Source of the DNA: Promethearchaeati archaeon
Lineage (GTDB): Archaea > Asgardarchaeota > Njordarchaeia > Njordarchaeales > Njordarchaeaceae
Length of the DNA stretch: 64,000 nucleotides
NCBI GenBank assembly: GCA_026993975.1
Contig: JALWRR010000076.1
Coordinates: forward strand, 2,016 to 66,015
Direction of reading: 5' to 3'
In this document: piece by piece, positions 47,392 to 47,931 of the stretch
Position numbering within the stretch: the stretch's first letter is position 1
Layout: every line of letters starts with the position of its first letter
Notes under the pieces: generated by a model
What the model saw: only the letters and a program-made list of their open reading frames with translations
Databases searched by the model: none
Told to the model about the DNA's origin: nothing
Program-made: the position numbers and the translations under genes

Positions 47392-47931
47392 TTAGAGACT
47401 TTTAAGAAAGCCAAATTTCATCCCGAGAATTAACTTCTCTTTATCACTGAGACCTCTTATAGCTTCAATAGCATGTTTTATCTCATCTTCATGTTCTATA
47501 ACATCTTCTATGTCATTATCTTCTTGTACCTCCCAGTCTCCAGTATGCTCTGTAGTCAGCTCAAGTACTTGGCGTATCTTAGCTACAGGTTCTTGTAATT
47601 CTTTAGCTATTAACTCTACATCAGGTTCATAACCCAAACTCAAAATAAAATTCTCCATAAACTTGAATACTTTTAACTTCAACTGCACTATATGAGCAGG
47701 AAGTCTTATAGTTCTAGATTTAGAGGTTACAGCGTCTAGTATAGCCTGCTTAACCCAAAAAGTAGCATAAGTAGAAAATTTAACCCCACGATCAGGATCA
47801 AAATGTTTCACTGCTTGAATCAATCCAATATACCCCTCTTGAACTAAATCTTCATAGGGTATATTATTGTTTTTGTATTTCCTTGCTATGTACTTTGCAA
47901 TATACAGGTGATCTCTAATTAAATCGTCCAT
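47392..47931 (-). CDS. Sigma-70 family sigma factor (179 aa) with regions 2-4.1 but no region 4.2.
   Basis: Region 2: [41 protein letters not shown]. Region 4.1-like: [14 protein letters not shown]. The protein stops right after that. Confidence 0.8.
   Translation of the reverse strand: [179 protein letters not shown]

Follow-up and report, generated by a model that had tools for sequence, protein, structure and literature searches.

The 64,000-nucleotide (nt) stretch of contig JALWRR010000076.1 analysed here (in the following, the window) belongs to a phage contig that is about 72 kb long and has a G+C content of 36.7%. It encodes an RpoD-like sigma factor that ends between regions 4.1 and 4.2, here called sigmaN, and a small protein, sigmaC, in which a cluster of four cysteines (Cys4) precedes a helix-turn-helix (HTH) of the region-4.2 type. 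Judged from the sequences, the chances are about even that the two proteins constitute a single sigma-70-family factor made of two polypeptides. Both open reading frames (ORFs) had been picked out in an original prediction based on the letters of the window; they exist as quoted there and are located on the minus strand, which had not been stated. Their parts, with lengths in amino acids (aa), are as follows.

47392..47931, minus strand: sigmaN, RpoD-like sigma factor of 179 aa with regions 2, 3 and 4.1 (ORF, Pfam, PHROG, hhalign)
47710..47922, minus strand: sigmaN region 2, residues 4-74 (Pfam match)
47548..47640, minus strand: sigmaN region 3, residues ~98-128 (weak Pfam match, hhalign, AlphaFold2 helices)
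47413..47511, minus strand: sigmaN region 4.1, residues 141-173, two helices (alignment with full-length sigmas, hhalign, AlphaFold2)
63714..63944, minus strand: sigmaC, 76 aa, Cys4 cluster followed by a region-4.2-type HTH (ORF, 22 homologues)
63852..63926, minus strand: Cys4 cluster C7-x9-C17-x4-C22-x8-C31 (cysteines invariant in 22/22 homologues)
63720..63830, minus strand: region-4.2-like HTH, residues 39-75, EYSVGEIAEALQTSRQRVWRLYDVAIAKLRK (hhalign, Pfam, AlphaFold2, Foldseek)

SigmaN is an RpoD-like sigma factor without region 4.2

Region 2 of sigma factors is responsible for binding of core RNA polymerase (RNAP) and for recognition and melting of the -10 element. It is present in sigmaN, as had been predicted: Pfam Sigma70_r2 gave an E value of 5e-22 (77.9 bits versus a cut-off of 24). 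Residues D28, Q31, E32, G33, F52, T54 and W59 are invariant in truncated and full-length sigmas, and Q62 is invariant within the truncated family. The match to Sigma70_r3 was weak (19.3 bits, under the cut-off of 25.3); the region is covered by the hhalign alignment, and AlphaFold2 placed helices at residues 79-99, 105-112 and 116-123. SigmaN also matched phrog_351, annotated as RNA polymerase sigma factor (E 1e-46, profile positions 505-690), and NCBIfam RpoD_Cterm (E 7e-37). The original prediction had considered that the 179-aa protein might be a complete group 4 (extracytoplasmic function) sigma. Its best matches belong to groups 1/2 (RpoD, RpoS), region 3 is aligned and an HTH is missing, which does not agree with group 4. 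SigmaN would be expected to bind core RNAP and to direct initiation.

The presence of region 4.1 and the lack of region 4.2, both claimed originally, were confirmed. Alignment of the sigmaN family to 35 full-length sigmas by hhalign covered columns 75-267 with a probability of 100, and neither Sigma70_r4 nor Sigma70_r4_2 of Pfam matched sigmaN, which ends 5 residues past the 'KFG' of region 4.1. In the AlphaFold model, domains 2 and 3 are followed by a disordered linker (127-146) and by a pair of terminal helices (141-159 and 163-173; predicted local distance difference test, pLDDT, ~77-81). According to this model, the terminal helices are the first half of sigma domain 4, with the HTH half absent. 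The hydrophobic pattern of region 4.1 is retained as a two-helix hairpin (L161 is invariant; G170, K172 and G174 are invariant or nearly so). In structures of sigma domain 4 the 4.1 hairpin packs on the HTH helices and contributes to the groove that binds the beta-flap of RNAP. A partner for sigmaN seems to be implied, because this half-domain was kept under selection with its hydrophobic face intact.

SigmaC carries a region-4.2-type HTH behind a Cys4 cluster

The 76-aa protein does align with region 4.2, as had been proposed. Residues 39-75 aligned to columns 268-304 of the 35 full-length sigmas (hhalign probability 78.5, E 1.7e-5), and Sigma70_r4 was the best Pfam family (E 1.1e-4, 22.0 bits with a cut-off of 24.1, profile positions 18-50, which form the HTH). 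We found 22 homologues of 73-79 aa and 56-74% identity. Sigma70_r4 was the top Pfam family in 20 of these, and the homologue in locus L095, which accompanies the most divergent sigmaN branch, passed the 24.1 cut-off with 27.5 bits. The HTH is largely invariant in the family (EY..G.IA..LQ.SRQRVWR.YD.A..KL). AlphaFold2 predicted its helices at residues 44-51 and 55-74 (pLDDT 83-92), and the top PDB matches in Foldseek were mostly sigma domain-4 chains, at an E value of only ~1 because the fold is so small (two helices). A PDB sequence-profile search with the family returned no significant match.

The recognition helix of sigmaC reads SRQRVWR where RpoD has TRERIRQ; two arginines are kept, and the helix is invariant in 22/22 members. 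The changes fall at the equivalents of E585, R588 and Q589 of sigma-70, which contact bases of the -35 element. Since these three contact positions are changed, the -35 specificity of sigmaC should differ from that of the housekeeping sigma.

The N-terminal part presumably binds a metal. The original prediction had described it as a CxxxxCxxxxxxxC cluster; the cluster is real, with four cysteines instead of three and one spacing off by one. AlphaFold2 modelled a low-confidence beta-hairpin here (strands 22-24 and 31-33, pLDDT 57-71). An anti-sigma factor of the zinc-binding (ZAS) type, which would correspond to an alternative raised earlier, is not supported, as sigmaC has no HxxxCxxC motif, no conserved His and no zf-HC2 match in Pfam. 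WhiB-like Fe-S proteins bind sigma domain 4 and are characterised by C-Xn-C-X2-C-X5-C and a G[VI]WGG turn. The cysteine spacing of sigmaC differs from this pattern, GVWGG is missing, and Pfam Whib gave no match at E values up to 10. A PHROG scan of sigmaC found no match, and only eight clusters of the family occur among 1.84 billion cluster representatives; the family is therefore rare.

More distant relatives (P0145-P0176, 70-160 aa) retain the arrangement of the cysteines (C..PGG.N..RPC-x4/5-C..[YH]HL...C.LD) and carry textbook region-4.2 helices, GVTRERVRQIE..AL.KL, with RpoD/RpoS C-termini as best matches. They pass the Pfam threshold of Sigma70_r4 and match phrog_351 at positions 694-735, directly past the segment matched by sigmaN. 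Considering Sigma70_r4 as top family, the RpoD/RpoS-like helices of the relatives and the phrog_351 positions, the HTH of sigmaC is, as far as sequence comparison goes, a homologue of region 4.2 and not a LuxR-type or unrelated HTH, which the original prediction had named as the outcome that would speak against it. The distant proteins were seen in six loci (L092-L094, L101-L103) of high-GC phages (59-70% G+C), one of them a prophage, where their genes belong to operons of the early/replication region and have DnaB, RusA and methylase genes nearby. For this Cys4 plus region-4.2 family there is no curated NCBIfam or PHROG model, no match was obtained in 50,697 deposited phage genomes, and we found no description of it in the literature.

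The sigmaC gene overlaps the end of an 85-aa ORF, and further ORFs without known family (289, 624 and 203 aa) lie upstream. These four (L006 6415-10035) had no Pfam or PHROG match, and the same was observed for the ORFs downstream of sigmaC on the minus strand, 61995-63662 (555 aa) and 60569-61840 (423 aa).

The two proteins are complementary and co-occur

In the hhalign comparison, sigmaN (columns 75-267) and sigmaC (columns 268-304) tile the full-length sigma profile without gap or overlap. All ORFs of at least 30 aa from a six-frame scan of the window were compared to a profile hidden Markov model (HMM) of full-length RpoD-like sigmas. Two ORFs matched, sigmaN at HMM positions 43-230 and sigmaC at 234-268, and no others. 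This agrees with the earlier claim that no frame downstream of sigmaN restores region 4.2.

The two genes co-occur in 5/5 related contigs in which both positions are readable, in each case on one strand and with sigmaC as the upstream gene. In the window their separation is close to the 16 kb given originally. The distances are:

window: 15.8 kb
L002: 9.2 kb
L005: 9.4 kb
L001 and L008 (one IMG/VR contig): about 11 kb
L095 (96-kb contig, sigmaN 45% identical to the window copy): 14 kb

Co-occurrence thus spans the whole divergence of the sigmaN family.

The truncation of sigmaN is a conserved trait

About 36 homologues of sigmaN (46-67% identity, 165-194 aa) were retrieved, none of them with a region 4 in Pfam. 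The next-best homologues (35-40% identity) are ordinary sigmas of 230-310 aa with region 4, and loci L009-L088 of a metagenome scan were ordinary bacterial RpoD matches that we left out of the comparison. All 20 of the 20 aligned members of the truncated family share the stop position (...LSxKExLxLGxKFG[ILF]xx[LIV]-stop).

The sigmaN gene overlaps the end of the SNF2 helicase gene, and on its 3' side the coding strand carries a 47-aa ORF, a tRNA-Leu, an HNH_3 endonuclease gene and a tRNA-Met:

46361-47237, minus strand: insert behind sigmaN with tRNA-Leu(taa), a free-standing HNH_3 homing-endonuclease gene and tRNA-Met, absent at this place in L005
46630-47133, minus strand: HNH_3 homing endonuclease with FCS-type zinc finger (Pfam)

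The HNH gene and the two tRNAs just past the sigma gene first hinted at an interruption. In that case sigmaN would be the remnant of a gene that is frameshifted, interrupted or decaying, and the HTH of the small ORF would be fortuitous. This explanation has next to no probability left and is effectively refuted. Every aligned homologue has its stop at this position, and in L005 sigmaN ends alike although a 215-aa gene follows and the tRNA/HNH insert is missing. Rfam detected no intron, and there is no coding potential for region 4.2 in any frame downstream. The small ORF, finally, has 22 conserved homologues with invariant cysteines and HTH residues. For the same reasons (no Rfam intron, no downstream region 4.2, same stop in the insert-free L005) interruption by an intron or a homing endonuclease was rejected.

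Two further matches were noticed in the course of these comparisons. P0038 (230 aa, from a metagenome contig of 1.3 kb) is nearly identical to the truncated family over its first ~55 residues and continues as a common RpoD-type sigma of full length, region 4 included. The protein is either recombinant or a chimera created by the assembly. In L004, tblastn gave another, weak 'sigma-like' match at 19976-20545, which has no Pfam support.

Promoter-like sequences

A class of promoter-like sequences, RRG-N14/15-CTTGTGnTATAAT, occurs on the early/replication strand, with 22 unique copies in the window and in the related loci L001, L002, L005, L006, L095, L097 and L098. The RRG is at a fixed distance in 19 of the 22. 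The copies of this class in the window are:

47371..47383, minus strand: promoter-like CTTGTGGTATAAT, directly past the sigmaN stop codon
57552-57564, 55109-55121 and 53514-53526, minus strand: other promoter-like copies

A copy is found at the same place past the sigmaN stop in L002, L005 and L095. Another copy (L006, position 6114) lies upstream of the sigmaC-containing operon, and in L097 a copy heads the entire leftward block. Promoters of Campylobacter jejuni have the consensus -35 TTTAAGTnTT, -16 TG and -10 TATAAT (PMC3824568). The class fits this consensus (PMC3824568) and has an additional conserved CTTG at -19 to -16 outside of it. Judged by this resemblance, the sites are probably host-type early/middle promoters.

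The search for promoter motifs upstream of late genes, suggested in the original prediction, defined no late motif. Its sole conserved non-coding block was found at 2692-2745 (plus strand), upstream of the first ORF of the structural block. It is conserved in L097 and L098, unlike the ORFs on its flanks, and has the form GCGGG...CAT...TTTGCA (2709-2714)-N18-TATATT (2733-2738). It could be a late promoter or, equally, a packaging site.

A possible sigma factor in two polypeptides and alternative explanations

Region 4.1 is retained in sigmaN, and the sole region-4.2-like ORF begins exactly at the profile position where sigmaN ends. For these reasons we favour a sigma factor composed of both polypeptides. 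Comparison provides strong evidence for the anatomy of the two proteins and for its conservation, and from the sequence data we infer their physical association, their binding to RNAP, their DNA specificity and their timing. SigmaN would anchor the complex, with region 2 bound to the beta-prime coiled-coil, and would recognise, melt and open the -10 element, while sigmaC would read a -35-type element. SigmaC might pack on the unpaired 4.1 helices of sigmaN, be held by the beta-flap, or both. On the host core RNAP the two proteins would together fulfil the functions of one full-length RpoD-like sigma. Of the two genes in the early/replication block, the small one comes first. Both products would be required for an active phage holoenzyme and would constitute an AND gate ahead of late, structural-gene transcription.

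Several points weigh against such a factor. The genes are not adjacent but 9-16 kb apart, and the profile support for sigmaC is moderate (hhalign 78.5%, Pfam 22.0 bits and thus below the cut-off, no significant sequence match in PDB). No late promoter with a matching -35 emerged, the structural block having too few intergenic gaps. The five cases of co-occurrence are all syntenic relatives, so that 5/5 demonstrates conserved core genes and not interaction; the pairing could be that of two core genes inherited together. At the six distant loci, where up to 10 kb per side are visible, neither precomputed Pfam annotation nor a six-frame HMM scan revealed an ORF with sigma region 2. By this comparison the Cys4 plus region-4.2 module is evidently able to work without a truncated sigma, and the Cys4 part of sigmaC may sit where region 4.1 would otherwise pack. 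As the module is free-standing elsewhere, it is unlikely that sigmaC is a simple fission product of the sigmaN gene, and sigmaC may fold and act without sigmaN. The suggestion of a two-component sigma in the original prediction therefore stands in part: it agrees with the conserved truncation, the region-4.2-type HTH and the 5/5 co-occurrence, but sigmaC may act on its own, given the occurrence of the wider family in six loci without a nearby region-2 gene.

The same observations can be read in favour of two independent proteins, an explanation that we regard as unlikely. SigmaN would be a complete, -35-independent sigma that acts on the -10 element alone and uses region 4.1 for contact to the flap or a regulator, sigmaC would be a free-standing early regulator, and both would co-occur as core genes of the lineage. 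Besides the six high-GC loci without a region-2 ORF in view and the position of the two genes in different parts of the block, 9-16 kb apart, the abundance of phage promoters with a strong extended -10 (CTTGTGnTATAAT) is in favour of this explanation, and sigma-70 lacking region 4.2 is reported to initiate at extended -10 promoters (Kumar et al. 1993). Against it, none of the sigmaN sequences has Glu at the position equivalent to E458 of sigma-70, the residue needed to read the TG of an extended -10; they have Q, S, A, T or N there, and this makes compensation via the extended -10 less likely. It is difficult to see why a conserved half-domain 4.1 with exposed hydrophobics would be retained without a partner, the sole region-4.2-like ORF starts where sigmaN stops, and the co-occurrence holds in 5/5 contigs down to 45% sigma identity. 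In addition, the sequence visible at the six loci extends to at most 10 kb per side, and often less due to contig ends. This range is shorter than the 9-16 kb between sigmaN and sigmaC, so a truncated sigma may still be located farther away.

SigmaC might instead be directed against the host, taking the beta-flap or the -35 DNA from domain 4 of the host sigma as an appropriator or decoy and thereby silencing or redirecting RpoD-dependent promoters of the host. A -35-binding appropriator had already been raised as an alternative in the original prediction. SigmaN would be immune, since it has no domain 4 to displace, and would take over. The location of the family in early operons fits a takeover role, and members of the family that are free-standing elsewhere have helices identical to the RpoD consensus (TRERVRQIE), as would suit competition for host -35 elements. 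However, the SRQRVWR helix is uniformly diverged in all 22 members, which better fits a phage-specific target, and a decoy would also strike the early/middle promoters of the phage itself, which carry the host-type, -35-like RRG. We consider a role of this kind quite improbable.

A more general proposal, tentative and rather doubtful in our view, is that Cys4 plus region-4.2 proteins are unrecognised portable '-35 reader' modules that dock on RNAP or on a sigma lacking its HTH and retarget it to other promoters. In the lineage of the phage studied here an RpoD-like sigma would have come to rely obligately on such a module, with AND-gated and maybe metal- or redox-controlled activity. Proteins of the sigma-70 family are considered to include domain 4 as an integral part. 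Few natural exceptions are known (T4 gp55/gp33, SigO-RsoA), and each of them has been instructive on how RNA polymerase is programmed. If sigmaN and sigmaC do form one factor, the break between 4.1 and 4.2 lies inside a single structural domain, and domain 4 would be assembled in trans. The pair would be a natural counterpart of engineered split-sigma logic gates, and a function would be assigned to an uncurated small phage protein family that is absent from the 50,697 deposited phage genomes.

The phage and further features of the window

The phage is tailed and uncultured. Its structural genes form a block on the plus strand:

4951-6561, plus strand: large terminase
6591-8009, plus strand: portal
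9424-10596, plus strand: major head protein
13834-25575, plus strand: tape measure protein, 3913 aa (PHROG matches)

The early/replication genes constitute a minus-strand block that runs from 64000 down to 37178:

early/replication block, minus strand: ligase, primase (918 aa), SNF2 helicase, thymidylate kinase
early/replication block, minus strand: 5'-3' exonuclease, family A DNA polymerase, thymidylate synthase, dCMP deaminase, SbcCD

The tape measure protein is exceptionally long for a genome of ~72 kb; its PHROG matches are at residues ~1500-3200, and the ORF contains internal 38-nt repeats. An N4-like phage with a virion RNA polymerase was considered and rejected, as the 3913-aa ORF is the tape measure protein.

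No close relatives of the phage were present among the 50,697 deposited phage genomes, two scans of genome contigs revealed no host or prophage copies, and a ligase-anchored scan for related loci gave no match. One sigmaN homologue derives from a metagenome-assembled genome labelled Campylobacterota. Based on this homologue and on the fit of the promoter class to the C. jejuni consensus, the host is probably a member of Campylobacterota.

Repeats were also observed outside the tape measure gene. The 256-aa ORF at 31021-31791 (plus strand) contains three tandem 60-nt repeats (31106-31305) that encode a Pro/Gly/Tyr/Cys-rich unit of the kind known from tail fibres or adhesins. An 80-nt element is present in four copies (277-356, 580-659, 1261-1340 and 1559-1638) between small early ORFs of the minus strand. 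On the coding strand it shows two GC-rich hairpins, AAGCCCTC-n4-GAGGGCTT and GGGC-TTCG-GCCC, followed by a ribosome-binding site and a start codon. These elements could be processing sites, terminators/attenuators or regulatory leaders.

Comparison to known systems

In the literature we found no split, truncated or bipartite phage sigma of the sigmaN/sigmaC type. Late transcription of phage T4 requires both the late sigma gp55 and gp33, together with the gp45 sliding clamp. A gp33/beta-flap structure (Twist et al. 2011) is cited in PMC9429907. As in T4, the tasks of region 2 would be performed by one phage protein and the region-4/beta-flap position would be taken by another. Apart from this the systems differ. 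While gp55 is a minimal, highly diverged region-2 protein, sigmaN is recognisably RpoD-like and comprises regions 2-4.1. The T4 protein gp33 has no DNA-binding HTH and no homology to region 4 and needs the clamp, whereas sigmaC is a homologue of the region-4.2 HTH by sequence. Neither PHROG nor Pfam linked sigmaN or sigmaC to gp55 or gp33, and no sliding clamp gene turned up among the scanned ORFs, with many small ORFs lying outside the scan. The kinship to T4 gp55 plus gp33 or SPO1 gp34 plus gp33 that the original prediction had suggested is reduced to an analogy, since there is no homology and the split is at a different place.

Sigma-70 derivatives without region 4.2 are another point of reference. 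Kumar et al. are reported to have observed in 1993 that sigma-70 lacking this region initiates at extended -10 promoters. Such derivatives resemble sigmaN in that the sigma ends before the -35 HTH, and the phage has promoters of the TGnTATAAT type. Those derivatives were engineered. SigmaN lacks the Glu equivalent to E458 and is always accompanied by a separate region-4.2 protein. Among the distant P0145-P0176 proteins, the likeness to sigmaC lies in the cluster C...C-x4/5-C...C-x-LD directly before the region-4.2 HTH and in the location in early/replication regions. Unlike sigmaC they have the canonical TRERVRQIE helix, pass the Sigma70_r4 threshold, and have no truncated sigma within the visible 10 kb.

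SigO-RsoA (YvrI-YvrHa) of Bacillus subtilis is reportedly a two-part sigma in which the small subunit RsoA provides the region-2-like function and SigO region 4 (MacLellan et al. 2009). PMC10141391 also lists SigO-RsoA as a two-part sigma, with a table that assigns the domains in the opposite way. SigO-RsoA is, like the arrangement proposed here, a natural sigma-70-family factor with its domains on two polypeptides that are both required. The SigO-RsoA genes are found in one bacterial operon, whereas the two phage genes are 9-16 kb apart. A further difference is that the phage sigma is divided between 4.1 and 4.2, with a small region-4.2-like subunit that carries a Cys4 module. The sigmaN/sigmaC pair is a member of neither the T4 gp55/gp33 nor the SigO-RsoA type, and these two systems are functionally closest to it.

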